Positions 3,101 through 64,000 of a DNA stretch of 64,000 bases are shown here, one piece after another. The position numbers were made by a program, and so were the translations under genes. This DNA is from Anaerolineales bacterium (GTDB lineage: Bacteria; Chloroflexota; Anaerolineae; Anaerolineales; Villigracilaceae). The notes beneath the pieces were generated by a model. That model searched no databases and was not told the origin of the DNA. It saw only the letters and a list, made by a program, of their open reading frames with translations. The stretch is from positions 774 through 64,773 of the forward strand of contig JASEHI010000004.1 of NCBI GenBank assembly GCA_030018695.1, written 5' to 3'. Position 1 is the first letter of the stretch. Each line of letters begins with the position of its first letter.

Positions 3101-3548
3101 GGATGCGCTTTGCCAGGTGGCGCAGTTTCAGTTCCTTGATAACCAGGCCGGCCATGATGGTCTTGCCGGCGCCGGGGTCGTCGGCGATCAGGAAGCGGAT
3201 GCGCGGCAACTTTAGCACGTGTCCATACACTGCTTCGATCTGGTGCGGCAGCGGGTCAACTTTGGAAGTGTTCATCGCCAGCAGCGGATCATATAACGAT
3301 GCAAAGCGATAGCGATGGGCTTCAAGAGCCAGGAACACGTGGCGTGGGTTGGCGGTAAACTGCGCCTTGATCTCCCCGCCCTTCACCTGTTCCAGTTCGG
3401 ACTTGGGCAGCATCTGGTCAATGTGGGTGCGCGAGTTCACCGTCGCGCCCACGATGCGAATATATTCACCGAGGTCTTCGATGAGATCAACTTTGATCGG
3501 TTCGGGCCAGCGTGGGCCCTGGATGATACTGCCGGGAGTAATGTTCAT
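141..3548 (-). CDS. SNF2-family DEAH helicase with a C-terminal DUF3883 / restriction-endonuclease-like domain
   Basis: Helicase motifs ADDPGAGKT (I), VVDEAHKM (II), LTATPHRG (III) and QRMGRIHRYGQ (VI). The C-terminus reads RRYIEVKGR...LTQNEW...EEYFLYAVLN. I chose the start at MNITPGS (3548) because the duplicated fragment at 4643-4773 begins at the same ATG. Confidence 0.85.
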   Translation of the reverse strand: MNITPGSIIQGPRWPEPIKVDLIEDLGEYIRIVGATVNSRTHIDQMLPKSELEQVKGGEIKAQFTANPRHVFLALEAHRYRFASLYDPLLAMNTSKVDPLPHQIEAVYGHVLKLPRIRFLIADDPGAGKTIMAGLVIKELKLRHLAKRILIVSPGHLKDQWRREMKDRFEETFTVVDRGIMGAFYGQNVWAREQQLITSIDFAKQDDILAGLASVQFDLIVVDEAHKMSAFRYGEKLDKTIRYRLGERLSEICTHLLFLTATPHRGDPENFRLFLDLLEPGFFATTDMVAESIRQQENPLFIRRLKEDMKDFEGRDIFLPRYVITKPFNLGVESYPEKELYNALSRYVNEQYGKALSKDKRRNVAFALVILQRRLASSTFALLRSLERRKKRLEDLLHGAEQKNRNESGYDFEEVEDLSEEERWKQEEVWETLSVAENREELVEELHTLDGLIDQARVIANSAPPAEAKLRHLKTALEDLNRQNPGSKVLIFTESRDTLDYLEKNLRRWNYSVCTIHGGMGLEERIRAESVFKNEAQVLVATEAAGEGINLQFCNLMVNYDIPWNPNRLEQRMGRIHRYGQTREVFIFNLVATDTREGQVLTALFKKLEEIREALGSDKVFDVLGDIIQGQDLSQLLVEAACGARSMDEILREIEVKVDPEYIARVREELGESLATRFIDYTRIREMADQAREHRLIPEYTAAFFKRAMEMLGGKWQPKTVAEYPEGAFLSVESVPSALRQVGEEETFKKQFAPLLRRYPLATFDKDASMRVSQAELVTFGAPLFEALLTWVERNLDVAMKEGALFTDPDGLMDGTLLFYQGEIRDGQNEIAGTRLFALFADGRSGAVTPVNPAILWDLQEGDLTPILGASPGPFAKHPCGAPGRRGEQSSLDSVQSKALGILLPELESYRLDLLRERQRQAAVKEKYGLKSLDQLIVKLDGDLINLKIRHENGENVDLVIRNKEEQMQRYQNSKSDLKRNLERERNLTLSTPRFLGAVRVVPAAGADEMVTDPQVEAIAMQVTMDHERAQGRLPEDVSKENLGFDVRSSGKDGQRRYIEVKGRAGSSSVALTQNEWFKAQRFGEEYFLYAVLNTASSPTLYMIQNPASILKPEEQVEVRYIVSFREILSKGQAK

Positions 3549-3630
3549 GATCAAATGCCCACTTGCCTGTATACGGGTAGGTTGCCAAGTAATCGCCAAC
3601 TAACCGCCGGTTATTTGCCAGGCAGGGCTG

Positions 3631-3692
3631 TGGCGTGTTTGGCGTGTTTCTGGCGTCTTAATGGCGTGTTTGGCGTGTTTCTGACGCCTTTA
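3631..3692. repeat. Tandem duplication, 2 x 31 bp (TGGCGTGTTTGGCGTGTTTCTGRCGYCTTWA); each unit contains GGCGTGTTT twice
   Basis: Direct reading gives 3631-3661 versus 3662-3692 with 3 mismatches. It spans the stop codon of the AlbA_2 gene and lies just upstream of the SNF2 start. Confidence 0.8.
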
Positions 3693-4572
3693 GTCGATAA
3701 AAGGTGCCTTTTCCGGTCAAACCAACTTGTTCAAGGATACCTTTCTGCACCAAGTCTGCAAGCTCTCGGCTTGCTGTGCGCGTGGATACCTGGCCGAGTT
3801 CCTGATATTCACTATTTGTGATGGAACCTTTTTCTTCAATCAACATTACTGCCCTGACCTGTCGCTCGCTCAATCTCAATGAGCGGAGTTGCCCCTCAAC
3901 CAAAATGTCATGGCGGAAAGCAACCCATAAAGCCCCCTGTTTTTCTTCAAACATAGGTTCAGGCAGTTTCGCCGCGGCGCATTCATCCAAAATCTTCTGG
4001 ATACCGCTGCCCCAGCGTTCGATCCAGCCGATATTGAAGAAGATTTCGGCGATCAGGCGACGCCCTTTCAAATTGCACAGCTTGCGGAATCGGCGTAGTT
4101 GTTTGGGGTCGAGGTCAGTAAGTTTGGCGCGCGGTTCGACAACCTGATCCCAGGTCATACCGACTTTTTCCAGGACGGCGCGAGTCAAGTCATCGTCGCT
4201 CATCTGGCGGTTGCTCTTGCCGACGCGCTTGAAATAACGCCCCCGACACGGAACCGGCTTGATAGCACTTTCGGCAACCTGGATGGCAACGACGGTTTTA
4301 CCTTCACGGGAAAAATGCTCTATCTGGTGTGGGTGTACGTGCGTGGCTTGGGCGATACGGTTGGTCCAATCTCGCAGAGTTTCCTTGCCCAGGGGTAGAC
4401 CTTTGACCGTGCCGTCATCTGCAACACCGACCAGCAGCACCCCGCCGTTGGCGTTGGCAAATGCGGAAATGGTCTCAACGGCCTCTTCGTCAAAACTTTC
4501 CTTGAACTCTATCGTTTCCGATTCTCCCTCAGCCAGCAGGCGGTTGAGATGAAAGACGCTTTCTTTGGTCAT
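3658..4572 (-). CDS. AlbA_2 (Schlafen-type) DNA-binding domain protein with C-terminal winged HTH; RecG-like putative transcriptional regulator family, with the central ATPase-like part apparently shortened
   Basis: N-terminus ESETIEFKESF...ISAFANANGGVLLVGVADDGTVKG. Central IGWIERWGSGIQKI. C-terminal HTH ITNSEYQELGQVSTRTASRELADLVQKGIL. Confidence 0.7.
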   Translation of the reverse strand: MTKESVFHLNRLLAEGESETIEFKESFDEEAVETISAFANANGGVLLVGVADDGTVKGLPLGKETLRDWTNRIAQATHVHPHQIEHFSREGKTVVAIQVAESAIKPVPCRGRYFKRVGKSNRQMSDDDLTRAVLEKVGMTWDQVVEPRAKLTDLDPKQLRRFRKLCNLKGRRLIAEIFFNIGWIERWGSGIQKILDECAAAKLPEPMFEEKQGALWVAFRHDILVEGQLRSLRLSERQVRAVMLIEEKGSITNSEYQELGQVSTRTASRELADLVQKGILEQVGLTGKGTFYRLKASETRQTRH

Positions 4573-4799: not shown

Positions 4800-5063
4800 A
4801 TGATATTGAAAATTGGGAGACGCGCGGATGTGAAAGCCAATCCGCACAAATTTCGACACACATTTGCGATCAATTTTCTCCGTAATGGGGGGAACATCTT
4901 CGCTTTACAGGCCATCCTGGGACACACATCTCTGGAAATGGTAAAGCGATACCTCGCAATTGCGCAAGCAGATATCGAAGTCGTTCACCGGAAAGCATCA
5001 GTTGTTAATTGCTGGAACCTGGGGACAATCGGCATCGAATTGGCGCCCTCAATTCTCAACTAG
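4800..5063 (+). pseudogene. C-terminal fragment of a tyrosine recombinase / phage-type integrase
   Basis: NPHKFRHTFAINFL...LQAILGHTSLEMVKRYL carries the HxxR, LGH and catalytic Tyr boxes. The whole N-terminal two thirds of the protein is absent. Confidence 0.7.
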
Positions 5064-5089: not shown

Positions 5090-5171
5090 TCCTCGCCGGG
5101 GATGGTTTAGCATTCCGGCGTATGAAAGGCTGTTAACCGCTAGGTTCGAGGTTCAAGTCCTCGGCGAGGAG
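5090..5171 (+). tRNA. tRNA-like element (probable pseudo-tRNA or att remnant); the anticodon arm cannot be folded
   Basis: 7-bp acceptor TCCTCGC/GCGAGGA. T arm CGAGG-TTCAAGT-CCTCG. Possible D arm GGGA/TTCC. Variable-arm-like hairpin AACC-GCTA-GGTT. Positions 5118-5134 form no 5-bp stem with a 7-nt loop. No CCA is encoded. Confidence 0.3.
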
Positions 5172-5200: not shown

Positions 5201-5203
5201 ACT

Positions 5204-6742
5204 TCATACTTTATACAACAGGTCCGCGAATCGTCTGAGCATTTCGCTGACCACGCCGCGCAGGGGCATTGTGGCAGCCATGCCATAGATGGGCGCGCTT
5301 TCCCCTTTCTCTTCCGGATTAGCCCGGACATGCTTCACGGCTGTCCGCAGATCGGCGATGAATTTCTCGGCAACGCCGGGTTGAGTATGGCGCAGCGTTA
5401 CAGCAAGGTGAACTGACGGGGGTTTTTGGAGTGGATTTAGATTCCACTTGCGGACAGCCATGTAATCCATGACCTTATAAATATCCACTGCCTCGGAGGC
5501 GAAGGAAATGATCCACAGCGGATCGCCGAGCACGCGCAAGTCAGGGATGGACTCGATGCCTCGCTTTATACTATCCGCCGTCTGCAGAATTTTTCCGCTT
5601 GCCTCGAGATAGCCTTTTTCGCCCAGCGAAACCATCGCCGCCCAGCAGACCGCGCTCAAGCCGCCGGGACGGCTGCCGCTCATGTTGGGCGAGAAATACA
5701 GCCCACCCGGCCAATCGGCCGCGGTGAAATACTGATAACGCCGCAATTCCTGACCGCGATAGAGGACCACGGATGTGCCTTTGGCGGCATAGCCGTATTT
5801 GTGCGTATCGGCGGAAATGGAGGTCACGCCGGGCAGTCGGAAATCAAAGGGTGGGACGGGGTAGCCCAGTTTCTCGGCCCAGGGGAGGATGAAACCTCCC
5901 AGGCAGGCGTCGGTGTGGAAGCCGATCCCCCTTTCTCGCGCCATTGCGGACATTTCAGCGATCGGGTCAATCACGCCGTGCGGGAAGGTCGGCGCGGAGC
6001 CGATGATGGCGATGGTGTTGCGGTTGAGCGCCTTTTTAATGGCTTTCAGGTCGGCGCGGAAATCGGGGCCGAGCGGCGTGCGAACGATTTTGATCCCGAA
6101 ATACTGCGCGGCTTTGTCGAAGGCGGGATGCGCCGTCTCGGGAGCGACGATCTCGGGCCGGGGGATGCCTTTGCGCTCGCGCGCCTGGTCGCGGTAGGTC
6201 TTCATGGCAAGCAGGATGCTCTCGCTGCCGCCGGAGGTGACCGTACCGCAGAATTCGTTCGCTGTTTCCCCCGCGCCGAGCATCTGCGCGGTCATCGAGA
6301 CGATTTCCGCCTCGAACTTGGAGACGCTCGGCCAGAGGTCGGTGTGCAGCGGGTTGGCCTGTGAATGGATGGCGTAGACGCGGTTGAGGAAATCAATATA
6401 AGCCGGGTCGCCGTGATAGACTGCCCCGGAGACGAAGCCATCTTTCCAGCGCGCGGCCTCTCGATCACGCAATGTTTCCATCCCAGCGATGATCTCCTGG
6501 CGGTCGCGGCCAGTTTCAGGCAGGCGGGAAAAGGTCGGGAAATCGCCCCGGTATGGCTTGAGCGCAGGCTCCAACCGCTCCATGATTTCCCGGTATTCTT
6601 TCTCGATCATGGCCTGCACCGAGGGGATGCGCCGCAGGGTTTTTTCCAGCCTTGTCAGCAGGCGCGGGTTTATCCGCCCCAGATGAGTGTGCAGGAGTTT
6701 AATTTTGTCCATCATCCATCCATGTTCGGTGTTTACCCACAA
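5204..6742 (-). CDS. PLP-dependent group II decarboxylase, sphingosine-1-phosphate-lyase-like
   Basis: [17 protein letters not shown] and [20 protein letters not shown] (PLP lysine in the HKYG context). Confidence 0.8.
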
Positions 6743-6776
6743 GTCAAAACTTAATAGACATTATCGGTAATAGCTT

Positions 6777-6844
6777 TTTTTGCATCGAATTACACGAATT
6801 GGGCGAATTTTCTTCGGGAAATTCGTGAAAATTCGATGCAAAAG
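6777..6844. repeat. Intergenic imperfect palindrome built from CGAATT/AATTCG motifs
   Basis: TTTTGCATCGAATTacaCGAATTgggCGAATT...AAATTCGtgaAAATTCGATGCAAAA. It lies between the FGGY kinase stop and the decarboxylase start. Confidence 0.6.
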
Positions 6845-6902
6845 AGGATCAGGATTTATTGCCGATAAGGATAAATCTTTTTCGGCTCGTCCGAGTTAGT
6901 CG

Positions 6903-8477
6903 TTAAGAATTCAGCCGCGCGCAAATCGGCCGGTTAGCCTGATAGAGGTTTACAAATTCCTTGAATAATTGGTCGTGGATTCTTCGGTTAGCCGGGTTGG
7001 CTTGAAAAGTATTGGTGATCTGCAGGCGCGCCGCGATTTCGTCGAATGTCGTCAGGCCGAGCGCGACGGTGGCCAGGAATGCCGCGCCGCGCAAACCGGC
7101 GCGGATCGGGTCTTTGACCTGCCGTATCGTGCGCTTCAGCACGTCGGCATGGATCTGGCACCAGATATCCGATTGCGCCCCGCCGCCGATCATGTTGATT
7201 GGCTCCATCCGCCGCCCGGCGAACCGTTCGACGCATTCGAGCAGCCAGCGGGCGTTATAGGCCACGCCCTCGAACACGGCGCGGACGAGCACGCGGCGGT
7301 CAGTCTTGAGGGACAGGTTGAAGAACCCGCCCCGAATCAACGCGTCTTCGACCGGCGTCCGCTCCCCGACCAGCCAGGGAGTGAAGATCACGCCTTCGCT
7401 CCCGGCCGGGGCCTGTTCGGCCATGCGGTCAAAGACTTCATAAATGTTGCCCGGAGGCGCGCCGGTCCGAAGTTCGTCTTCGGCGTAGAGCAGGTTGTCC
7501 CGCAGGAAATTCAGGCAGGCGCCGGCGCACTCCTGTTCATTGGCGATGTAGTATTTGCCGGGTATCGCCGAAGGCAGGGAGGCCATGCTGTGGAGCAGAT
7601 CAGTCTTTTTGAAGGGGACGTGGCAGGAAATCCACGACGAGGTGCCGAGGTAAAGATGTGCTTCGTAATCTCTCACCGCGCCGGAGCCGACGGCGGCCGA
7701 TTGCGCGTCGGTGGCGCCGGCGACGACCAGGGTCTTCTCTGACAGGCCAAGTTCCCGGGCGGCCTCCGCTCGGAGCGGGCCGAGGACGTCTAACGTGCGC
7801 CTGAGTTCGGGCAGTTTTTCCCGCTCGACGCCAGCCATCCCCAGTAGACGGTTATCCCAGAGGATGTTGTAGATATCGCGGTTGTCGGTGAGCCAGTGCA
7901 GATTGACGGAGTCGTAAGTCGCGGCGACCTGGCCGGTCAGGCGCATGTTGATGTAATCTTTAGGCTCGAGGAATTTGTAAGTTTGCCGGTAAATTTCGGG
8001 CAGTTCGTGTTTGACGAACAGGATGTGGGCGAGGGAATCTTTGCCCGAAGGTGTTGGCACGCCGCCGGTCAGGCGCAGCCAGGTCAGCAGTTTCCCGATC
8101 CCATAGCCCTGAATCTTGAAGATGCCATTCGTTGCTTTCTGGGCATACCGCGCGCCGCGCGTGTCCATCCAGAAGATGGCATTCATCAACGGGCGTCCGT
8201 CTCTGCCAACGGCGAGGGTGGTGGAGTACAGGCTGGCGCAGTTGACGGCGAGGATGTCTTCGGCCGGAACCGGGTTTTGCCTGATCACCCGCTGCGCCGC
8301 CCGCAGGATGGCCTGCCACCAGTCGTCCGGACGTTGCTCGATCCCGCCGTTGGGCAGGAAGAGGGTCTCGACCTTCTCGAATTCGCTGGCCAGGATTTCC
8401 CCGCGCGTCGAAACCAGCCCCACTTTTGGGCCGGAAGAGCCCAGGTCTATTGCCAGTGTGTATTTCTCGTTGGGCAT
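6903..8477 (-). CDS. FGGY-family carbohydrate kinase (xylulokinase-like)
   Basis: N-terminal YTLAIDLGSSGPKVGLV, and FGGY C-terminal domain IGGGAQSDIWCQIHADVL. Confidence 0.85.
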   Translation of the reverse strand: MPNEKYTLAIDLGSSGPKVGLVSTRGEILASEFEKVETLFLPNGGIEQRPDDWWQAILRAAQRVIRQNPVPAEDILAVNCASLYSTTLAVGRDGRPLMNAIFWMDTRGARYAQKATNGIFKIQGYGIGKLLTWLRLTGGVPTPSGKDSLAHILFVKHELPEIYRQTYKFLEPKDYINMRLTGQVAATYDSVNLHWLTDNRDIYNILWDNRLLGMAGVEREKLPELRRTLDVLGPLRAEAARELGLSEKTLVVAGATDAQSAAVGSGAVRDYEAHLYLGTSSWISCHVPFKKTDLLHSMASLPSAIPGKYYIANEQECAGACLNFLRDNLLYAEDELRTGAPPGNIYEVFDRMAEQAPAGSEGVIFTPWLVGERTPVEDALIRGGFFNLSLKTDRRVLVRAVFEGVAYNARWLLECVERFAGRRMEPINMIGGGAQSDIWCQIHADVLKRTIRQVKDPIRAGLRGAAFLATVALGLTTFDEIAARLQITNTFQANPANRRIHDQLFKEFVNLYQANRPICARLNS

Positions 8478-9043
8478 TTCGATCTCCTCGATAGATATAG
8501 CAACCCGACACTTTCATAAGTATGGTGGTCGAGTAGCCCCGAACGTCGTACTGAGCCTGTCGAAGTATGCTCTTTGAGGGGCGTATCGAGACCACACTTC
8601 AAGTCAAGATCATGCTGTTGGAATACTACCCGGCGATGTTATCAATTATACATGAGGCCACTTTTTCAGTGCGCTCACAGGGGATTATTAGGCTGTCTTG
8701 GAAATAGCCGGCATTTTCATGCTTTGTGGTGTCAAGCAGACATGATGTCTCATTGGGATTTGCCGTGTTTCGGCGGCAAATGTGGGACAAATTGCCAATT
8801 TGCCCTACGCCTTACCAGCATATGTGCTGGTTCCCGGTGATTCCCAGAGAGCCTTTTTTCTTGTATAATCTCTTATCGTGAACCGGAGCCCCGACTTTCT
8901 CTCTTTGATTTTGATGCCTGTGGACATGGGTGGCGCATTTATGATCTTGGGATTTATGCCAATGACGATTGAGCGAAAACCGCCCAGCAGGACTTGGACC
9001 GGGATCGTGACCCCTCCAAAAATTTCTGTGCTGTATGCGTCTA

Positions 9044-9904
9044 GTTGCAGTCGGTGGGGTGGTCTCCCACCCCACCGCTGCTACAGAACCGTGCATGAGA
9101 CTTTCGACCTCACACGGCTCCTGAGCATACGGGCCGTTGTCATCGGTACCATAACAACGAACCTTACCATTGTTGTGGCTTGACACCTGAACTGGTTGGA
9201 TGGCAGAGATTTGGTTATCCTCTGCGGTCTTCAGTACGTCAAAGACGCCTGCCATAAGACCCTTCACCTTCCAGTGCCTGTGTCTTCCCGTATACCCGCC
9301 CCACGTCAGCCTATCTCTGGCATTACCCAGAGCCTTAGCTTGTTTCGACAGGCTCAACACAAGTCTTGGGGCATCCCACCTGCCTATGGCTTACGGTTGG
9401 TTACCTGCTCCGCCAAAAGTGCAGGCGAAGAGCCACAGGAGGTTACTCCGTTCCGAGTGTCCATTGTTTCGTGACTTTAGGATGGCACTTCGCTTTGCGT
9501 GCCTTCGGCAACGCCGGTATCCTTTCGAGTGGTTACCATGCACCGATGTACTGCATGGCCTGGATACAGTCCCTTTTGGGTCTTGCCTGTCAGCCAAGTT
9601 TGGCAAGTTCTGCACACTTGCACCTGCGGCAAGTGCAGGTGTGACGACGCTTCAACCACACCTTCACTCATCGTTATCCATAGCCACTTGCTTGGGGCGA
9701 TGGCGACTTTTGGCTAGTCGCTTATCCCCTTTCCTTCCCGCTTCTGACCCGCGTTTACCAGGCGCACGCCAGGGGAGGGTGCTTTCACTCCACCACTTGG
9801 AGGGTAAGAGTTTCACTTACATGAACACTCAGTTGTCAAGGTTCGATGACCTTGCCGCTCAGCCCTCGTACCTTACGGTACAATTTCGAGCGAACGGGTC
9901 GCAC
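9044..9904 (-). mobile_element. Group II intron RNA, ORF-less (no maturase/RT), inserted in an attC-like site
   Basis: The 5' end is GTGCGACCC. Domain V at 9120-9086 reads GAGCCGTGTGAGGTCGAAAGTCTCATGCACGGTTC, with the AGC triad, a 2-nt bulge and a GAAA-type loop. Domain VI at 9081-9047 has a bulged A 7 nt from the 3' end (...CTGCAAC). No RT motifs appear in any frame. Confidence 0.8.
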
Positions 9905-10028
9905 ACAAGCGCGTGCAGCCGACGTTGCTACCGCGCCGCCCCAGCGAAGGCTCTGGTTATTCGGGCGAGTCTTGCCCGCGTAGGTGTCTCTAACACCCGC
10001 AACGCGGCTGACGCGCAGGTCGTTAGGC
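9905..10028 (+). other. attC-like recombination site 0. Its first 5 nt (GTCTA, 9039-9043) are separated from the rest by the intron.
   Basis: Reconstituted R'' is GTCTA|AC and R' is GTTAGGC (10022-10028). The stem GCGCGT(G)CAGCCG / CGGCTGACGCGC is 12 bp with one extrahelical G. Total length is 129 nt. Confidence 0.55.
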
Positions 10029-10049
10029 AGCAAGAGAAGGAGCAATCAT

Positions 10050-10739
10050 ATGGTGGAAGAAGATCCTATATTTCGCAAGCACGATCGATACAAGGCGAGT
10101 AGCTACAGCAGCTACAACTTCAAGATGCCGTCGCGTTACGACACCTGCTTCTGGCTTTGGTTCTGCCAGGCCGCGCTCTGGGATCGGACGCTAGTCGATG
10201 AGTTGCGGCCGACCATCAGCTCGCTTCGCATCCTCGACGTCGGTTGCGCCACAGGCCGGCTCCTGGAAGCACTCGCCGAAGCTGGAGCGTCTGAACTCTT
10301 TGGTACTGACCTAGCGCCCCGGATTCTTGAGGTAGCGCGGGAGAAGCTCTCCGAGACCGAGGCCAAGGTAGAACTCCAGACCGCCGATGCCGAGGATTCT
10401 CTGCCTTGGCCCTCGGAGTTCTTCGATGCCGTCACCCTCACGGGAGTGCTCCACCACTTCTTCCGCCCGCGAGACGCTCTCTCGGAAATCCGCCGGGTAC
10501 TGCGTCCAAGTGGCCGACTCCTCATCACCGATCCCTGCTTCTTCCCTCCGATCCGTCAAGTGCTCAACCTGGCTCTTCGCGTCGCGCCGCACGACGGTGA
10601 TTATCGGTTCTATTCACAGAGAGGTGCCGTTGAGCTCTTGGAGCGCACAAATTTTCATTGTTTGGGAGCCAGACGCGTAGGCTTGTGGGGATACCTCATC
10701 ACAGCCGCAAAGCCAGACGCGTCCAGGGACACTGCCTAA
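10050..10739 (+). CDS. Class I SAM-dependent methyltransferase (Methyltransf_11/25 type), cassette-borne
   Basis: ILDVGCATGRLLEALAE (motif I) and VLRPSGRLLITD. AAGGAG lies 7 nt before the ATG at 10050. The ORF-track start at 9984 would read through the R' box. The TAA stop lies inside GCCTAAC. Confidence 0.8.
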   Translation: MVEEDPIFRKHDRYKASSYSSYNFKMPSRYDTCFWLWFCQAALWDRTLVDELRPTISSLRILDVGCATGRLLEALAEAGASELFGTDLAPRILEVAREKLSETEAKVELQTADAEDSLPWPSEFFDAVTLTGVLHHFFRPRDALSEIRRVLRPSGRLLITDPCFFPPIRQVLNLALRVAPHDGDYRFYSQRGAVELLERTNFHCLGARRVGLWGYLITAAKPDASRDTA

Positions 10740-10860
10740 CAACTCGCTGCACCTGACGGGGCTACAGCTGCGCGATTCAAGCATTCTGAGGCAGCATAGG
10801 TGGCTTCGGCGGCCGCGAGTCTTGCCAGCGCCGCCCCGCAGCTTAGCCGGAGCGTTAGGC
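10734..10860 (+). other. attC-like recombination site 1
   Basis: R'' GCCTAAC (10734-10740) and R' GTTAGGC (10854-10860), 127 nt in total. Inner pairing CGGGGC/GCCCCG and GGCGGC/GCCGCC. It shares GAGTCTTGCC with site 0. Confidence 0.55.
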
Positions 10861-10885
10861 ACCTGGTCTAGGAAAACCATACATT

Positions 10886-11749
10886 ATGAAAGCGTATGAA
10901 TACATCACAGCAAAGCAAATACAATGGGCGTTAAATCGTGGTATTCCGCTTGTCGGTAGTAAAGGTGATAAAGGTCGCCCCGCATATACTCCTGAACTCA
11001 ATCAAAATCTATTTGAACCTTTGAGTTTAGATACCCGCAAAAGTTTTGAACAAGGTGACGGGGGCGAAATCAGTGGAAATCCAGCCAAAATGCAGGCGGT
11101 ACATTCATCATCCGCTTTAGGCGTCAATGTTTTTCAATATTGGCAAAATATTGGGCAAGTGTCCGCTATTGCGTCTGCTTGTGGTTTTTGTCGAAAAGGA
11201 AATATTGTCTCCGAAAAAATTGTGTTTGAAGATAAATATCCAGTGGACGACAATTTAGATAAATTTCCTAAAGCCCCGAACATTGATGTTGTTTTCCACA
11301 ACACCGACTCGGCTCAATTCAAAAGATTTGCCGTCGAGTGTAAATTTTCAGAAGCATACGGCTTGCAAAAACATACCGGCTTGAAGCCCGCATATCTTGA
11401 GTTAATTCATTTGTGGTCAGACATTCCAAGTTTGTATGAATTCGCAAAAACTATCTGCCCAAATGAGAACTTTACCTATTTTCATTCTGCTCAATTAATC
11501 AAACACATTCTTGGTCTTAAGAGAAGTTTTGGCAGGAGTGGTTTTAGGCTTCTCTATCTTTGGTATGATGTTTTAGGCAAAGAAGGGGCTATTCACCAAG
11601 ACGAGGTTAATGAGTTTTCTGGTGTTGCAAAGGCTGATGGAATTCACTTTAACGCCATGTCATATCAAAAGTTAATTCTTGTGGCATCCAGAGAGTACAG
11701 GCAAGAACACACTACATACATCAAGTATTTGAGCGAGCGATATTTGTAA
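10886..11749 (+). CDS. Uncharacterised PD-(D/E)xK-type nuclease-fold protein, AT-rich cassette gene
   Basis: PNIDVVFHN...KRFAVECKFSE matches a D...ExK core. The segment is visibly more AT-rich than all its flanks. The ATG lies 25 nt after the R' box. Confidence 0.55.
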   Translation: MKAYEYITAKQIQWALNRGIPLVGSKGDKGRPAYTPELNQNLFEPLSLDTRKSFEQGDGGEISGNPAKMQAVHSSSALGVNVFQYWQNIGQVSAIASACGFCRKGNIVSEKIVFEDKYPVDDNLDKFPKAPNIDVVFHNTDSAQFKRFAVECKFSEAYGLQKHTGLKPAYLELIHLWSDIPSLYEFAKTICPNENFTYFHSAQLIKHILGLKRSFGRSGFRLLYLWYDVLGKEGAIHQDEVNEFSGVAKADGIHFNAMSYQKLILVASREYRQEHTTYIKYLSERYL

Positions 11750-12017
11750 TTCACAAGGTTGTTGTAAAATTGGGCAAGGCACTTTTAATAGCCAGCGAGT
11801 CTTCAAGTTCTGCCGTGCCTAACACAGCGTGGGTGTGTCCTGAAAGTCATCGTCTGCTTGCTGGCCGCGAAGCGAGTCCAGTCCTGATTTCGACAGGCTC
11901 AATCCAAGGGTAACGGTCAGGCGGCCAGGTTTCGACAAGGTCTCGACAAGCTCGACCCGGCGGCTCAACCTACCAGGTAGCAGGCCCTTCGGCAATGCAG
12001 CCGGGTGACTGGGTTTC

Positions 12018-12066
12018 GACACCGTTCGTGCCGCGAACAACGGCGGCACGCCGGTGCGAGACGGCA
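12018..12066. repeat. REP-like hairpin repeat (family A), copy a
   Basis: GACACCGTTCGTGCCGCGAACAACGGCGGCACGCCGGTGCGAGACGGCA, with the stem CACCG..CGTGCCGC / GCGGCACG.CGGTG. Confidence 0.8.
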
Positions 12067-12181
12067 AGCTCAACCTGCCAGCTATGTCGAAGCGTTGCCG
12101 AAGGTCCCTGAGAAAGGGAAGCAAAGCAGCAGCCCGTAACACACAGTGCTGTGCATAAAGTGAACCCTTCGACAGGGTTTC

Positions 12182-12251
12182 GACACCGTTCGTCCACAGG
12201 ATCGCTTCACTGATGCCGCGAACAACGGCGGCACGCCGGTGCGAGACGGCA
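12182..12251. repeat. REP-like hairpin repeat (family A), copy b, carrying a 21-bp internal insertion
   Basis: Same core as copy a, interrupted at 12194-12214. Confidence 0.75.
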
Positions 12252-12373
12252 GGCTCAACCCGGCGGCTCAGGGCAAGTCTTGCAGCACCGACATGTTAGC
12301 CCCTTAAGGGGAGCAAGAGAGAGCCGAGCCTGCGACGGTTTTTTTTATTTTCCGGGGTGTTTTTTCTTTTTTA

Positions 12374-12604
12374 GTGGAAGAATTGCGGGCAACAATAAAA
12401 GCCTCCGCTCCTGACGCAGAAGAAATAATTAGTTATCAAATGCCTACTTTCGCTCTGAAAGGTAATATAGTCCATTTTGCTGCCTGGAAAAAGCATATTG
12501 GGTTTTATCCAACGTCAAGCCAAGCAATAGATTCGGCAAGTTGGGAAGAGCTTTGTGTGCTAAAATCCGGTTATGAAAGTTCGCGCCGTTATCAAACTCA
12601 TTGA
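12374..12604 (+). pseudogene. DUF1801 (YdhG-like) domain fragment
   Basis: EELRATIKASAPDAEEIISYQMPTFALKGNIVHFAAWKKHIGFYP. The N-terminal part is missing and the C-terminus diverges where hicA begins. Confidence 0.5.
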
Positions 12605-12668
12605 AGTAGATGGCTGGTATCTGGTTGTGACAAAAGGTAGCCATGTATCGCTTTCTTATCGTTATTGA
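12573..12668 (+). pseudogene. hicA: Truncated hicA toxin (31 codons)
   Basis: My translation is MKVRAVIKLIEVDGWYLVVTKGSHVSLSYRY*. Homology stops right after the conserved GSH, at the point where the hicB ATG (12643) begins. Confidence 0.6.
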
Positions 12669-12858
12669 AAAAGCAAATGGCAATTACTCGGCATATTGCC
12701 CTGACTTACCTGGCTGTGTTGCCACCGGCAAGACACGCGAAGAAACAGAGCGCAATATGCACGAAGCCGTAGAAATGCACGTACAAGGCATGATTGAAGA
12801 TAAAATGCCCATCCCCGAAAGCGTCACGCTTGCGGAATATATCGCCGTAGCAGTGTAA
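12643..12858 (+). CDS. hicB: HicB-family antitoxin
   Basis: YRFLIVIEKANGNYSAYCPDLPGCVATGKTREETERNMHEAVEMHV. Confidence 0.8.
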   Translation: MYRFLIVIEKANGNYSAYCPDLPGCVATGKTREETERNMHEAVEMHVQGMIEDKMPIPESVTLAEYIAVAV

Positions 12859-13132
12859 TCAACCAGTCTGAGTGTCTGGTCAGATATAAGCAGGTTAACA
12901 AAGCGTCTACCAGGCGGAGCTAATTCCCCGCGAAAACTGGCGTTGAGCGACAAAAATTTGGGGTTTAAAGAGCCACTTTTTGCGCCATTCAAGCAGATTT
13001 AGTCCAAAATTGTCTGGATGTCCAATACGTTTTTCGACCTGTCTCATGCAAAACTGTGCAAAGCGCCCCTTTTACGGCCCGAAAAAGCCGTTGGACGCAA
13101 ACCCCTTCGGGAAGGTAGCGGAAAATAAGTGA

Positions 13133-15466: not shown

Positions 15467-15740
15467 AAATCCTCCTGTGTAATATGGTTTTTTATTAACA
15501 AAACGACCCATACGCCAAGGCATGTGGGTCGCCTCGCTGTAATTTTACCTAACACAAGATGAAAAGTCAAACATGGTTTTCTGGGAAAGATTAGGATTCG
15601 ATTAGAATCTTACAAACCGCTTGACTTTCACTCTCGAACTATTGTATAGTTTTAGGCAGTTGGATATTGTCCTTACCCGGCACCGCTGCCTCAGGCTGCT
15701 GTGCCGTTTCTTTCGTCATACCATCCTTGAAGGAGATCGA

Positions 15741-16736
15741 ATGATACGTGCTGATGGACTCACCAAAGACTATGGCGCGCGGCGGGCTATCGAAAACCTG
15801 ACCTTCGAAGCCCGCCAGGGCGAGGTGGTCGGATTCCTTGGCCCGAACGGAGCCGGCAAAACCACCACGATGCGCATCCTGACCGGTTACTTGCCTCCCA
15901 CCTACGGGGCGGCGAAAGTAGCCGGCTTTGACATTATCTCTGAATCGCTGGAAGTTCGCCGTCGCGTGGGTTATTTGCCCGAAACGGTGCCGCTCTATCC
16001 CGACATGGTCGTCTTCGACTATTTAAAATTCATGGCTGACCTGCGCCACCTGCCAAATGCCGAAGATATGGTTTTCGAAGCCCTCGAAATGGTCGGCATG
16101 GAGGAGCGCGCCGAAGGTTACATCAGCGCCCTCTCGAAAGGCATGCGCCAGCGGATCGGCCTGGCCCAGGCGCTGCTGCACAAGCCCGAAGTGCTGATCC
16201 TGGACGAACCCACCATCGGCCTGGACCCGGCCCAAGTGGTGGAAGTGCGTAATCTCATCCGCGATATTGGAAAAGAACGCACAGTTTTGCTATCCACACA
16301 TATTCTTTCTGAAGCGCAATCGCTTTGCGACCGCGTCCTTATCATCAACAAAGGACATATTGTGGCCGAGGATTCGCCTGAGAATTTGCAGGCCCGGCTG
16401 GTCGGCGCGGAGCGTTCCATTCTGCGCGTCAAGGGGGATGCGGACGAACTCGCGCCCAAGATCGCCGCGATTGCCGGCGTACAGAACGTCAAAACACAAG
16501 TGGATGGCGCGCTGGAATTTCAATTCGCTCCGGGCGTGGATATCCGCCCCGAGGTCGCAAGAATTACCGTCAATGCAGGTTACGATCTTCTCGAACTGCG
16601 TCCGGTGGGGATGAGTCTGGAAGAAATATTCCTCGAACTGACCCGCGACACCGTGACACCGTTCGTGCCGCGAACACCGGCGGCACGCCGGTGCGAGACG
16701 GCAACGAATGCTTCGCGCCCTAAGAAAGAAAGGTAG
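15741..16736 (+). CDS. ABC transporter ATP-binding protein (ABC-2 / GldA-like); the 3' end runs into a REP-like repeat
   Basis: GPNGAGKTTT, LSKGMRQR and VLILDEPT. The start at MIRADGL follows GAAGGAG. The last roughly 28 codons are encoded by repeat copy c. Confidence 0.85.
   Translation: MIRADGLTKDYGARRAIENLTFEARQGEVVGFLGPNGAGKTTTMRILTGYLPPTYGAAKVAGFDIISESLEVRRRVGYLPETVPLYPDMVVFDYLKFMADLRHLPNAEDMVFEALEMVGMEERAEGYISALSKGMRQRIGLAQALLHKPEVLILDEPTIGLDPAQVVEVRNLIRDIGKERTVLLSTHILSEAQSLCDRVLIINKGHIVAEDSPENLQARLVGAERSILRVKGDADELAPKIAAIAGVQNVKTQVDGALEFQFAPGVDIRPEVARITVNAGYDLLELRPVGMSLEEIFLELTRDTVTPFVPRTPAARRCETATNASRPKKER
16655..16703. repeat. REP-like hairpin repeat (family A), copy c, inside the 3' end of the ABC ATPase ORF
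   Basis: GACACCGTTCGTGCCGCGAACACCGGCGGCACGCCGGTGCGAGACGGCA. Confidence 0.8.
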
Positions 16737-17489: not shown

Positions 17490-19159
17490 TGAAGAAATCT
17501 GACCGAGTTTCTCCTGCGCGCCGAGTAGGCGCTGCCCTGAGTTCATCGAAGGGCGCTGCGCAGAAACAATCAAAAAAACGAATTGATCTGCGCCAATATG
17601 CCCCCCTGGGTTTGTGGCTGTCGCTGGCCGCCATCCTCTCCAGCGGGATTCTCCTGCTGATCAAGTTATTGGCCAAGATGGGATTATATACACCGCCAAG
17701 CTTCGAAAGGCTCAACCTGGCACTTTGGATCAGCTTGGGACTGGTTGTTATCGGCCCGGCGCTCTATTCCCTCCTTGAGCCCCAGCGCGTGCGTGATTTC
17801 CTGACCGGCCGCCAGGCGCGTTACGGAAGCAATGCCTTGATTATGCTGGTCGCCTTCCTCGGCATCCTGGTCGTGGTAAACGTCATTACCTTCCAAAATC
17901 CCCACCGATGGGACCTGACCGAGGACAAGCAAAATTCGCTCGCCCCCGAGACTCTGGATACCTTGAAGTCGCTCCCCCAACCGGTCACAGCGACCGCTTT
18001 TTACACCGCGCGCACGCCTTCCACCTCTGCGCAGGAGCTGCTGGATAGGTACAAGGCTCACAGCGCGGGTAAATTTGATTACACCCTGGTTGACCCGGAC
18101 CAAAAGCCACTGGCCGCACAACAGGCCGGCATCAGCGGAGATGGGAAGATTTACCTTCAGATGGGCGAGCAACACGAGATCGTCGCTTATGCTTCCGAGC
18201 AGGAGATTACCGCTTCGTTGATCCGCTTGATGAATCCGGGTGAGCGCAGCGTTTATTTCCTCACCGGGCATGGCGAACGCGACATCATGAAAGCCGGGGA
18301 TACGGCTTTTACCCAGGTCCGCGCCGCGCTGGAGGCCAAGAACTACCAAGTCCAGACCCTGAACCTGATCGCCCAAAACCAGATTCCCCAGGATGCCCTG
18401 GCGATCATTATCGCCGGCCCCCAACAACCATTATCCACGCAGGAAGTGAAGCTGATCGAGTCTTTCGTAGCCGGGGGCGGCGCGCTCATCGCCATGCAAG
18501 AACCTTTACCTTTGACCAATTTCGGCGCATCCCCAGACCCGCTGGCGGTTTATTTGTCGAATACCTGGGGCATAACATACAATAATGACATCGTCATTGA
18601 TCCCAACTCGAACCAACCGATTGTCGCCGTCGCCAATAGTTACAGCCCTCATCTCATCACCGAGAAATTGCAAAGACTGGTCTCATTTTATCCGACCGCG
18701 CGCAGTCTGGCAGTTTCGACAACCAGTTCCGGCGTGTATGCTACCCCCTTGGTAATCACAATTGATCGCGCCTGGGGCGAGACAGATTTCGATGCCCTCC
18801 AGAGTAACCAAGTCAGCTATGATCCGAGCTTGGATTTCGCCGGCCCGCTCACGCTGGGCGTGGCGGCCGAAAATCCGAACCAGAATAGTCGCCTGGTCGT
18901 CTTCGGCGATGCTGATTTTGCGTCAGACGGCTTTTATGGCCAATACGCCAATGGCGATATGCTCATCAACGCCATTGACTGGGCTGCACAACAGGAGAAC
19001 CTGATCCAGCTTACGGCCAAAGAACCGATCACTCGTACAATGAATATGCCAAGTAATACGGTTCAGTTGCTGATCGGTTTTATGCTGATCTGCGCCATCC
19101 CAGGCTTGATCGTCGCCGCAGGAATTGCCGCCTGGCTGAAACGCCGCGTGCGAGGCTAA
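17480..19159 (+). CDS. GldG-like ABC-system auxiliary protein
   Basis: N- and C-terminal TM anchors around a large extracytoplasmic domain, in the usual position after the ABC-2 permease. Codons 13-30 come from a 52-bp interspersed repeat. Confidence 0.65.
   Translation: MAIMKKSDRVSPARRVGAALSSSKGAAQKQSKKRIDLRQYAPLGLWLSLAAILSSGILLLIKLLAKMGLYTPPSFERLNLALWISLGLVVIGPALYSLLEPQRVRDFLTGRQARYGSNALIMLVAFLGILVVVNVITFQNPHRWDLTEDKQNSLAPETLDTLKSLPQPVTATAFYTARTPSTSAQELLDRYKAHSAGKFDYTLVDPDQKPLAAQQAGISGDGKIYLQMGEQHEIVAYASEQEITASLIRLMNPGERSVYFLTGHGERDIMKAGDTAFTQVRAALEAKNYQVQTLNLIAQNQIPQDALAIIIAGPQQPLSTQEVKLIESFVAGGGALIAMQEPLPLTNFGASPDPLAVYLSNTWGITYNNDIVIDPNSNQPIVAVANSYSPHLITEKLQRLVSFYPTARSLAVSTTSSGVYATPLVITIDRAWGETDFDALQSNQVSYDPSLDFAGPLTLGVAAENPNQNSRLVVFGDADFASDGFYGQYANGDMLINAIDWAAQQENLIQLTAKEPITRTMNMPSNTVQLLIGFMLICAIPGLIVAAGIAAWLKRRVRG
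17516..17567. repeat. 52-bp interspersed element (GCGCGCCGAGTAGGCGCTGCCCTGAG....TCGAAGGGYGCTGCGCA), copy 1, in frame
   Basis: Near-identical to 42232-42283. Both translate as ARRVGAALS.SKGAA.KQ. Confidence 0.8.
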
Positions 19160-63332: not shown

Positions 63333-63753
63333 GCCGCGCCTTTCATCAAGCGAGCGCGCCCGTATTGTGGAACGCGCAGAAGGCTGTTGCGAATATTGCC
63401 AATCGCAGGAGCAATATTCCCCCGATCCCTTTTCGGTTGAACATATCATTCCGCTTTCCAAAGGCGGCACAAACGCTTTGGATAATCTCGCCTTTGCCTG
63501 CCAGGGGTGCAACAACCGTAAATACACCAGCATCGAAGCGTTTGACCCTGTCAGCCAGTCCGCCGTTCTCCTCTTTCACCCGCGGCAACATTCATGGGTG
63601 GAGCATTTCGCCTGGAGCGATGACAGCACACTTATCCTGGGATTAACCCCGATCGGGCGAGCTGCTATCGAAAAACTTCAATTGAATCGTTCAGGGCTTG
63701 TCAACCTGCGCCGTATTTTATTTGAAGCGGGCGAACATCCGCCTGTCTTATAA
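63325..63753 (+). CDS. HNH endonuclease
   Basis: CEYCQS...FSVEHIIPLSKGGTNALDNLAFACQGCNNRK. Confidence 0.85.
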   Translation: MPEPRLSSSERARIVERAEGCCEYCQSQEQYSPDPFSVEHIIPLSKGGTNALDNLAFACQGCNNRKYTSIEAFDPVSQSAVLLFHPRQHSWVEHFAWSDDSTLILGLTPIGRAAIEKLQLNRSGLVNLRRILFEAGEHPPVL

Positions 63754-63760
63754 AAAAACC

Positions 63761-64000
63761 ATGCCCGCCAACGCCTTCATCACCAACTCCCAAGCGCACA
63801 CGCTGAAGAAGCGGCTGGATGAACTCATCCAGCACAGCCAGGAACTCAAATTCCTGGTGGGCTTTTTCTATTTCTCCGGCTGGCGCGAACTGTACGAAAG
63901 CCTGAAAAGCCAAAACGACCTGACCATCAAGTTACTGGTCGGGCTGGATGTGGATAAATCGCTCGACCGCGTGCTCGAAGTTGCCAAAGAAGGCGATTCG
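63761..64000 (+). CDS. 5' end of an HKD(PLD-like)-nuclease/helicase fusion gene; partial, continues past the right edge
   Basis: My translation is MPANAFITNSQAHTLKKRLDELIQHSQELKFLVGFFYFSGWRELYESLKSQNDLTIKLLVGLDVD. This pattern is typical of the N-terminal NgoFVII/PLD-like domain of SNF2-type defence helicases. Confidence 0.55.
   Translation, partial: MPANAFITNSQAHTLKKRLDELIQHSQELKFLVGFFYFSGWRELYESLKSQNDLTIKLLVGLDVDKSLDRVLEVAKEGDS

Follow-up and report, generated by a model that had tools for sequence, protein, structure and literature searches.

Positions 8678 to 12948 of the 64-kb window (the whole stretch of DNA analysed, 64,000 nucleotides) hold what we read, with a probability of roughly 85%, as a short CALIN-type cluster: integron gene cassettes with no integron integrase. 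It is part of an Anaerolineales (Chloroflexota) chromosome in a metagenome-assembled genome, with an FGGY sugar kinase gene on one side and an H+-pyrophosphatase gene on the other. Elements of this kind are already known and the present one shows a few unusual details; the sole feature that a specialist might not expect is a group II intron, ORF-less and with a non-IIC domain V, that occupies the canonical IIC-attC position. The initial annotation had proposed a cassette array bounded by attC sites, with the integrase out of view, and this is supported by covariance-model matches, by cassettes that recur singly elsewhere and by the lack of a conserved operon.

The features of the cluster up to the end of its second cassette gene and the untranslated segment behind it are as follows, R1 and R2 being two covariance models of this attC family.

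8678 to 9038, no strand assigned: left junction segment, body of a would-be 'cassette 0'; synteny stops at 8677, no match to R1 or R2
9039 to 9043, plus strand: start of R'' of attC site 0 (GTCTA, 5 nt), cut off from the remainder of the site by the intron
9044 to 9904, minus strand: ORF-less group II intron, 861 nt; Rfam Intron_gpII (RF00029), 57.6 bits, E=1e-8, gathering score 40
9905 to 10028, plus strand: remainder of attC site 0 (L'', variable region, L' and R' GTTAGGC at 10022-10028); R1 23.6 bits, E=1.4e-4; R2 23.9 bits
10050 to 10739, plus strand: cassette 1 gene, class I SAM-dependent methyltransferase, 229 aa; Pfam Methyltransf_11, 3e-25; stop codon within R'' of site 1
10734 to 10860, plus strand: attC site 1, 127 nt, GCCTAAC...GTTAGGC; R1 32.1 bits, E=9e-7; R2 31.2 bits
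10886 to 11749, plus strand: cassette 2 gene (ORF2), REase-ARP-like (PD-(D/E)xK-type), 287 aa; Pfam PF22558, 2.7e-14
11750 to 11816, plus strand: 3' untranslated segment of the ORF2 cassette, from stop codon to R''; kept in loci L081, L083, L092, L094, L095, L097, L100 and L101

Direct reading located all of the boxes that had been reported: GTTAGGC at 10022-10028 and 10854-10860, GTTAGCC at 12295-12301, and GCCTAAC at 10734-10740, enclosing the methyltransferase TAA (10737-10739), with a second GCCTAAC at 11817-11823. The lengths given for sites 0 and 1, 129 nt (9039-9043 plus 9905-10028) and 127 nt, were recovered too, together with the internal sequence common to both, GAGTCTTGCC at 9967 and 10817. 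The next ATG codons had been placed 22-25 nt past the R' boxes; the close spacing stands, with measured distances of 21 and 25 nt. As a tally, GCCTAAC/GTTAGGC boxes are unremarkable in the window (5 found vs 4.5 expected). The unusual part is that four of the five are packed into 1.8 kb, properly ordered and oriented.

Model R1 was trained on 9 attC sites, all from other metagenomic arrays and none from the window. It comprises 19 pairs with 91.8% of cells paired, a figure that drops to about 30-40% once the partners are slid, and 7 of the pairs carry compensatory changes. On both strands of the 64-kb window, R1 gave significant matches only at 10734-10860 and 9901-10028 (next best, E=0.16), and R2, built from 37 sites, agreed on these two. 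R1 and R2 are family-specific models made here, not IntegronFinder's attC model, and their E-values are rough; they match the two sites proposed at 9905-10028 and 10734-10860. The R boxes, GTCTAAC/GTTAGGC in site 0 and GCCTAAC/GTTAGGC in site 1, follow RYYYAAC/GTTRRRY and are paired in the minimum-energy folds. Both full sites are members of an attC family, 125-130 nt in length, found widely in environmental arrays. A strict regular expression (RYYYAAC plus GTTRRRY, at least 6 of 7 positions complementary) returned site 1 only in the window and zero sites in related arrays; it is too stringent because many family members have imperfect R boxes.

Joining GTCTA to the AC at 9905-9906 restores the GTCTAAC box of site 0, and removal of the intron in silico raises the family HMM score of the site from 9.7 to 14.6 bits, the match then being full-length. 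The initial annotation had taken the intron out implicitly; its presence is in itself a major argument for the integron reading. The recombinogenic strand of site 0 is the minus strand. Once reconstituted, its bottom strand has a fold of -37.5 kcal/mol (z=-4.1), in which the R box is paired and an extrahelical C and T lie 6 bp apart. Site 1 matches the family over its full length but has 3 mismatched pairs in its L box, and its fold is no more stable than those of shuffled sequences (z=0.07). The 'single extrahelical G' first described for site 0 lies on the top strand, the unpaired bases of the bottom strand being the C and T just named.

In the published description of attC sites (PMC5027507), the R box carries AAC/GTT, there is an unpaired spacer, and length ranges from 57 to 141. 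On the bottom strand, the arm opposite AAC carries the extrahelical bases; a 6-bp stem separates the first from the last, with a T at the distal and usually a G at the proximal position. Both of our sites fit this description in the position and spacing of the extrahelical bases, in the distal T and in their length of 127-129 nt, but the proximal base is C, not G. The same L''-proximal C is present in 29 of the 37 family members. On a more speculative reading, the integrases serving a Chloroflexota-wide attC family with C in place of G as the key L'' extrahelical base would have a binding pocket tuned in another way.

The two intact cassettes are promoter-less and bounded at G|TTRRRY, and their genes turn up as single cassettes in many unrelated contexts. 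The cassette 1 methyltransferase has 405 homologues at E<=1e-20; in two of these loci, L175 and L176, similarity begins at a GTTGGGC or GTGGGGC box and the DNA upstream is unrelated. ORF2, with a GC content of about 39% vs a background of about 58%, had been called an orphan, a label contradicted by its Pfam REase-ARP match and by 1697 homologues. These homologues share sequence only from GTTRRRY on, as seen on comparing the window with L081, L084, L094, L095, L097, L100, L101, L110, L120 and L121. One of them (L094) sits in a dense array of 6 attC sites in 4.7 kb, and in L132, L138 and L139 the ORF2 homologue is the first cassette beside a verified IntI, the integrases of L132 and L138 scoring 430 and 450 bits on TIGR02249 (cut-off 265). 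The REase-ARP-like gene is a very widespread environmental cassette, with some 1700 homologues, sometimes first beside intI. Unrelated attC sites joined to ORF2 homologues at R'' would have supported an intron-mediated genesis of cassettes; in a larger sample, most close homologues carry the same attC family, and we rejected this idea. PADLOC returned nothing specific for the cassette proteins, exact-protein look-ups for the proteins of the window gave no record, and a scan for promoters and terminators found no excess over chance.

Beyond ORF2 the cluster is decayed, and its features there are these:

11817 to 11831, plus strand: attC site 2 remnant, R'' and start of L'' (GCCTAACACAGCGTG); 4th-best nhmmer match in the window, E=4.9
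11832 to 12294, no strand assigned: GC-rich filler in place of the site 2 interior, with two REP-like hairpin units at about 12007-12075 and 12171-12260
12295 to 12301, plus strand: GTTAGCC box, possible surviving R' of site 2, unsupported by the models
12374 to 12604, plus strand: DUF1801 gene fragment, a decayed cassette; Pfam PF08818, profile positions 5-45 of 85 only
12573 to 12668, plus strand: hicA toxin stump, 31 aa; Pfam HicA_toxin, profile positions 2-25 of 58, score under cut-off
12643 to 12858, plus strand: hicB-like antitoxin gene, apparently intact, 71 aa; Pfam HicB_lk_antitox, 2.4e-13
12896 to 12948, plus strand: attC remnant, an R''-L'' arm (GGTTAACAAAGCGT...) followed by GTTGAGC; 3rd-best nhmmer match (12896-12938), E=2.5

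The 'site 2' (11817-12301, 485 nt) and 'site 3' (ending at 12948) of the initial annotation are not recognised as attC by R1 or R2, and family resemblance is confined to their R''-L'' arms at 11817-11831 and 12896-12938 (nhmmer E=4.9 and 2.5). The site 2 remnant agrees with the family consensus GCCTAACA(A/C)AGCGTGCAC over 15 nt and diverges beyond. AGTCTTGC precedes the GTTAGCC box as in the 3' arms of the family, but about 20 nt are missing. The remnant at 12896-12948 shows no attC-like fold (z=0.39) and no covariance-model match. As for the toxin-antitoxin module noted as cargo, hicB is intact and the module as a whole is degenerate, hicA being reduced to a 31-aa stump. A match to group-II-D1D4-4 within site 2 is weak (E=2) and was taken as chance.

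Of the four attC sites proposed, two are full and significant, sites 0 and 1, which lie on the same strand within 4 kb of each other; this is the minimum for a CALIN. No integron integrase was detected in the 64-kb window by tblastn with IntI1 and two verified IntI proteins, in line with the earlier statement that neither intI nor attI is in view. The window likewise lacks a complete integron (intI divergent from the cassettes, with attI and Pc) of the kind present in the related loci L132, L138 and L139, and no recognisable intI pseudogene adjoins the array. Two candidates were discarded: an 87-aa recombinase C-terminal fragment at 4800-5063 is of the Xer and not the IntI type, with two syntenic core genes standing between it and the array, and an IntI-probe match at 63510-63770 (E=2e-4) is spurious, being antisense to another gene and devoid of recombinase motifs.

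Mechanistically, IntI would have brought the cassettes in by recombining folded bottom-strand attC hairpins, the AAC/GTT triplet of R' being the place of crossover. The integrase would since have been lost, or may be encoded elsewhere. The array appears to be undergoing fossilisation: site 0 is split by the intron, site 1 has gathered L-box mismatches, and sites 2 and 3 are broken. Because the intron parts R'' from the remainder of site 0, the hairpin should be unable to form and cassette 1 should no longer be excisable. With no integrase, an intron-hit attC, a mismatched attC and half-sites, the locus is a clean example of cassette fixation in a chromosome outside Proteobacteria.

How such a cluster came to lie here admits other accounts. 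It is possible, and we put it no higher, that it was once the distal end of a sedentary chromosomal integron and was cut off by a rearrangement, with integrase, attI and the remaining array on another contig of the same genome. It would then be neither an independent insertion nor the product of integrase loss in place. The long attC sites (127-129 nt) of a single family, as in sedentary integrons, would suit such an origin, as would the coincidence of the left edge of the array with a synteny break and the finding that about half of CALINs occur in IntI-encoding genomes (Cury et al., PMC4889954). Against it, the array is tiny and decayed, and neither the 8.6 kb of housekeeping genes on its left nor the 51 kb on its right hold a further attC site or an integrase.

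We consider it unlikely that an integrase acting in trans placed the cassettes straight into a non-att genomic site (the attG route, Loot et al.), with no integron platform ever at the locus. Small CALINs, with about two cassettes, are common, and such an origin has been proposed for them (bioRxiv 10.1101/2022.09.11.507474), and the position of the array between unrelated core genes, with no adjacent intI pseudogene, is as such a route would leave it. However, the remnants of at least four cassettes exceed what a single insertion would be expected to leave, and the left junction shows no clean G|TT: an imperfect R'-like box, ATTAGGC at 8687-8693 (A-TTAGGC), lies about 10 nt inside the synteny break.

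This break was placed by comparison with the nearest genome, L001 (94.9% nucleotide identity; kinase 97% identical in amino acids), whose synteny with the window stops at 8677. The segment that follows, up to 9038, contains no convincing gene and no attC. No synteny partner was found on the right-hand side, which leaves the insertion without exact limits. Syntenic relatives, examined for a conserved operon, showed none, the closest genome being out of synteny from 8677.

An assembly or binning chimera, with a foreign cassette array joined to an Anaerolineales backbone near 8678, might be suspected from the source (a MAG contig), from the fall in GC to 39% and from the loss of synteny with the nearest genome after 8677, on a contig whose right side is non-syntenic as well. 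We find it very improbable: the REP-like units of the array (12007-12260) have a third copy in the backbone at 16666-16735 in a repeat search of the window, and a palindrome inside the intron recurs at 42618, both pointing to the same genome, while heterogeneous GC is normal for cassettes. Least credible of all are ordinary intergenic palindromes (REP elements or terminators) with coincidental boxes, an idea fed by several REP-like families in the genome, some within the array region, and by the chance-level GCCTAAC total in the window, but opposed by the same repeat family bordering unrelated single genes in arrays of many other organisms, by ORF2 homologues adjoining verified integron integrases, by an attC architecture kept by compensatory changes and by an intron at the canonical attC position.

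The intron itself has the ends of a group II element (5' GUGCG, 3' ...AC), with domains V and VI at 9044-9122 and a bulged A 7 nt from its 3' end. Read on the minus strand, its junctions are ...GCGCTTGT|GTGCGACCC and ...CTGCAAC|TAGACGC, which places it at TTGT/T in R'' of the site 0 bottom strand, in the orientation opposite to the cassettes. Neither reading frames nor Pfam revealed a reverse-transcriptase/maturase ORF or a relic of one, and an intron without its own enzyme would have had to move in trans via a related intron-encoded protein. Domain V reads GAGCCGU..., giving an AGC rather than a CGC triad, about 780 nt lie upstream of it, and the closest D5 model is plastid (IIB-type). Domains I-IV match no Rfam D1-D4 family even at E<=10, and the models do not classify the intron. 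A candidate EBS1 (6 nt, ACAAGC) at intron position 562 and a candidate EBS2 at 136 suggest an IIB-like mode of exon recognition. No further copies occur across 2 Mb of compared loci, and blastn against plasmids gave domain V matches only, to cyanobacterial and other introns; the Klebsiella match is to an ordinary intron of the ltrA kind that lies in no integron.

Group IIC-attC introns (S.ma.I2 and relatives; PMC3001079, PMC7923331) insert at TTGT/T in the bottom-strand R'', opposite to cassettes, and the intron described here shares this site and its antisense orientation to the cassette genes, and it too parts a cassette from its attC. It differs in encoding no protein, in its AGC triad and in the stretch before domain V, which is far above class IIC. 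The class IIC ribozyme is marked by a CGC triad in domain V and a small domain I without EBS2 (PMC7923331), and the intron does not conform to this class. Because the IIC-attC clade is defined on a protein tree, a protein-less intron cannot be assigned to it. We offer only tentatively the interpretation of a non-class-C (IIB-like), ORF-less lineage that may have converged on the IIC-attC target (TTGT/T, bottom-strand R'') and been mobilised in trans. If it were true, attC invasion would no longer be peculiar to one intron clade; should such an intron turn up again, it would be informative about the recognition of attC hairpins by introns and about the part that introns have been proposed to play in the making of cassettes. 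Among the non-IIC group II introns of cassette arrays and CALINs, UHB.I2 is alike in its IIB-type domain V with AGC. It differs in being cassette-sense, just downstream of attC and in encoding a CL1 protein, whereas the present intron is antisense, inside R'' and ORF-less.

Compared with sedentary chromosomal integrons (for example, the Vibrio cholerae repeats of 120-130 nt), the array is alike in its long attC sites of one family (127-129 nt) with a large variable terminal structure, in its toxin-antitoxin cassettes and in its diverse accessory genes. It differs in having no integrase, attI or Pc, in holding a handful of cassettes and in an L''-proximal C where G is usual. With respect to CALINs as defined in 2016 (PMC4889954), it differs in being of minimum size (two intact sites plus remnants), with one site disrupted by an intron, and in having been found with a family-specific model, not IntegronFinder. 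It resembles them in having two or more attC sites in one orientation, spaced by less than 4 kb, with no nearby integrase and no adjacent intI pseudogene, and in its promoter-less cassettes of accessory or unknown function, in a phylum, Chloroflexi, already known for integrons.

The array at 8678-12948, lying between an FGGY sugar kinase gene and an H+-pyrophosphatase gene, is a CALIN-type remnant in the definition of Cury et al. (PMC4889954). Its elements are the following:

9039-9043 and 9905-10028: site 0, an attC site of 129 nt split by an intron
9044-9904, minus strand: group II intron
10050-10739, plus strand: ORF1, the methyltransferase gene of cassette 1
10734-10860: site 1, an attC site of 127 nt
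10886-11749, plus strand: ORF2, the REase-ARP-like gene of cassette 2
11817-12301: "site 2", as initially proposed
ending at 12948: "site 3", as initially proposed

Re-reading the sequence returned the R' boxes (GTTAGGC at 10022 and 10854, GTTAGCC at 12295) and the R'' boxes (GCCTAAC at 10734 and 11817) of the initial annotation, with the methyltransferase stop codon inside the 10734 copy, and direct reading showed the internal GAGTCTTGCC to be common to sites 0 and 1. The ATGs do stand close behind the R' boxes, at a measured 21 and 25 nt rather than the claimed 22-25 nt. The heptamer GCCTAAC/GTTAGGC is without overall excess (5 copies in the window vs 4.5 expected); four of the five copies, however, crowd into 1.8 kb, ordered and oriented as attC sites would be.

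As a source of independent attC sites, we fetched flanked homologues of the 10886-11749 gene, many of which are followed by a repeat of 124-130 nt that starts with GCCTAACA(A/C)AGCGTGCAC and ends with aaccGTTRGGC. A bottom-strand alignment (A2) was made of nine of these sites, all lying outside the window, under an imposed canonical architecture of 7-bp R box, unpaired spacer, 4 bp, bulge, 6 bp, bulge and 2 bp. Under this architecture 91.8% of cells were paired and 7 of the 19 pairs showed compensatory changes, while sliding the partners by 1-3 columns as a control left 29-42% paired. The family-specific covariance model built from A2 (R1), run with filters off on both strands of all 64 kb, matched 10734-10860 at 32.1 bits (E=9e-7) and 9901-10028 at 23.6 bits (E=1.4e-4), with no third significant match (next best E=0.16). 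A second model from 37 sites (R2) reproduced this outcome on the window, and both intervals first put forward as attC sites, 9905-10028 and 10734-10860, were in this way recognised.

With the intron removed, the bottom strand of site 0 reaches a folding energy of -37.5 kcal/mol (z=-4.1; 0 of 200 shuffles as good); its R box is paired, and the 3' arm of its long stem is GCAACG-T-CGGCTG-C-ACGCGC. Two extrahelical bases lie on the arm opposite the AAC triplet with a 6-bp stem between them, which is the arrangement of Nivina et al. (PMC5027507); both have the conserved T distally, whereas the proximal base is C here and usually G there. The "extrahelical G" noted initially is the top-strand complement of this bottom-strand C. 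Across 37 attC sites from loci L081-L147 (alignment A3), the proximal (L'') base is C in 29 and G in 4, 35 sites carry a distal T, and the 6-bp spacing is canonical. Site 1 shares this layout (GCCCCG-T-CAGGTG-C-AGC...) but contains three mismatched pairs, and its fold is no more stable than those of shuffled sequences (z=0.07). Judged by its sequence, site 1 is a member of this attC family; it may be losing function.

Turning to the cargo, ORF1 matches Pfam Methyltransf_11 (3e-25) and has 405 homologues at E<=1e-20; similarity starts at GTTGGGC in locus L175 and at GTGGGGC in L176, with unrelated DNA upstream. The 287-aa product of ORF2, whose GC content is 39% vs a background of ~58%, matches Pfam REase-ARP (2.7e-14); a search at E<=1e-5 gave 1697 homologues, so the gene is not the orphan it was taken for. 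Its similarity to other loci starts exactly at the R' box, the left-hand DNA being unrelated in each:

ORF2 cassette start, window: ggagcGTTAGGCACCTGGTCTAGGAAAACCA
ORF2 cassette start, L081: actatGTTGGGTGCTTGGTCTAGGAAAACCA
ORF2 cassette start, L084: attattGTTAGGCACTTGGTTTAGGAAACCA

The same start is seen in L094, L095, L097, L100, L101, L110, L120 and L121. Because similarity begins at the R' box and the upstream DNA is unrelated, both intact genes are mobile integron cassettes. The loci that share this ORF2 start are dense arrays, with six attC sites in 4.7 kb of L094 and three to five each in L100, L120, L121 and L126. In L132, L138 and L139 a ~60% identical homologue is the first gene beside a divergent tyrosine recombinase, which scores 430 (L132) and 450 bits (L138) with the integron integrase model TIGR02249 (cut-off 265); the L132 homologue is bounded by GTTCGGA and an attC starting TCCGAAC.

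Some further features of these loci were recorded. The ~70 nt from the ORF2 stop codon to R'' (11750-11816, ggcaaggcacttttaatagccagcgagtcttcaagttctgccgt) are kept across many homologous cassettes, including L081 (1059-1124), L083 (10865-10935), L094, L095, L097, L100 and L101, and could be a regulatory or structural element travelling with the cassette. In L115 an IntI-like protein, represented by just its C-terminal ~80 residues (2521-2748, minus strand), lies directly upstream of and divergent from the ORF2 homologue (2901-3764), possibly an integron with a truncated integrase; partial IntI-like matches also occur in L172, L165 and L130. On Mb-scale contigs, ORF2 homologues in L092 (954-12971) and L083 (1-20864) sit in long co-oriented runs of unrelated small genes (APH, SnoaL, ABM, PIN, methyltransferases, beta-lactamase-fold, MFS), with degenerate attC-like boxes only and no integrase within 10 kb; these may be similar arrays that are older and further eroded.

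The source contig, from an Anaerolineales MAG, measures 65,961 nt, almost all of which is the window. A tblastn search with IntI1 (used as probe only) and the two verified integrases of L132 and L138 found no integron integrase in the window, which bears out the initial reading. The sole recombinase match, an 87-aa C-terminal fragment at 4800-5063 (plus strand), was rejected as intI: Xer models score better than TIGR02249, and two conserved core genes intervene before the array. Its best models are XerA/XerC-like; it adjoins a Schlafen/AlbA_2-HATPase_c_4 gene (3658-4572, minus strand) and a T-arm-like ggttcgaggttcaagtcctc at ~5143-5165, where ARAGORN calls no tRNA, and it seems to be what is left of an integrated element.

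The alternative of a conserved operon was checked against the nearest genome (L001), which is 94.9% identical in DNA and has a kinase 97% identical in protein. L001 is collinear with window 5202-8677 and then has a MalT-like gene in place of the array; therefore the content is variable, not that of a conserved operon. A REP-like intergenic repeat (cgagtaggcg...cctgagcctgtcgaaggg) occurs at 8530-8600, between the kinase gene and the array, and at 17517-17566, 42233-42282 and L001 11647-11696; its core TGAGCCTGTCGAA recurs in the intron (9343-9356, as complement) and at 11888-11902. Three origins can be envisaged: loss of the integrase in situ, detachment of the array from a larger sedentary integron, or insertion straight into a genomic site (Loot et al.).

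Within the CALIN-type remnant, the distal half reads to us as a decaying tail of former cassettes. Neither R1 nor R2 recognised 11817-12301 or 12885-12948, and "sites" 2 and 3 do not stand as full attC sites. A profile HMM ranked 12896-12938 third (E=2.5) and 11817-11831 fourth (E=4.9) in the window, 5' arms on the correct strand and in the correct places. Of the genes that follow "site 2", only hicB is intact; DUF1801 is present as a fragment and hicA as a stump of 31 aa. The 463-nt interior of "site 2" is GC-rich and contains a REP-like hairpin unit in two copies. The unit (ccgttcgtgccgcgaacaNcggcggcacgccggtgcgagacgg) lies at 12007-12075 and 12171-12260, both in the broken site, and at 16666-16735, where it forms the C-terminal tail of an ABC-ATPase reading frame (15621-16736).

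The array feature begins at 9039 because site 0 is split by the intron. Rfam assigns minus-strand 9044-9122 to domains V and VI of a group II intron (57.6 bits), and the minus-strand junctions read ...GCGCTTGT / GTGCGACCC... at 9905/9904 and ...CTGCAAC / TAGACGC at 9044/9043. Deleting 9044-9904 in silico joins GTCTA and AC into GTCTAAC, a perfect RYYYAAC. Site 0 then scores 14.6 bits with the profile HMM instead of 9.7 and the match becomes full-length, and the intron boundaries are therefore fixed to the nucleotide. In the intron (861 nt, 5' GUGCG, 3' AC) domain V is canonical and domain VI bears a bulged A 7 nt before the intron end; no reverse-transcriptase frame or relic was found. It would have been mobilised in trans, and would block hairpin formation by site 0, thereby immobilising cassette 1. 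A 30-nt near-perfect palindrome cacacctgcacttgcNgcaggtgcaagtgt inside it (9614-9643) recurs 33 kb away at 42618-42647, which links the intron with the present genome and is a hint that domain I may hold a small inserted element.

Group IIC-attC introns lie on the bottom strand, inside R'', at TTGT/T and antisense to the cassettes (PMC7923331, PMC3001079), and the present intron matches them on all four points. By position it thus behaves like them, yet in its testable characters it departs from the class: its domain V triad is AGC, as against the CGC reported for class IIC, and unlike class C it has ~780 nt upstream of domain V. Two more features sit badly with class C: among D5 models a plastid (IIB-type) family scores best after the general one, and the intron has hexamers with complementarity to the final 12 bases of the exon, at intron positions 562 (ACAAGC, in a plausible hairpin loop) and 136 (GCGTGC). 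None of the Rfam D1-D4 models matches it, and searches of plasmids and of 2 Mb of fetched loci turned up no relative. Of modest interest are this apparently non-IIC intron, the extrahelical C that runs through the attC family, and the REase-ARP-like cassette, which is very widely spread in the environment; integrons in Chloroflexi were already reported by Cury et al. (PMC4889954).
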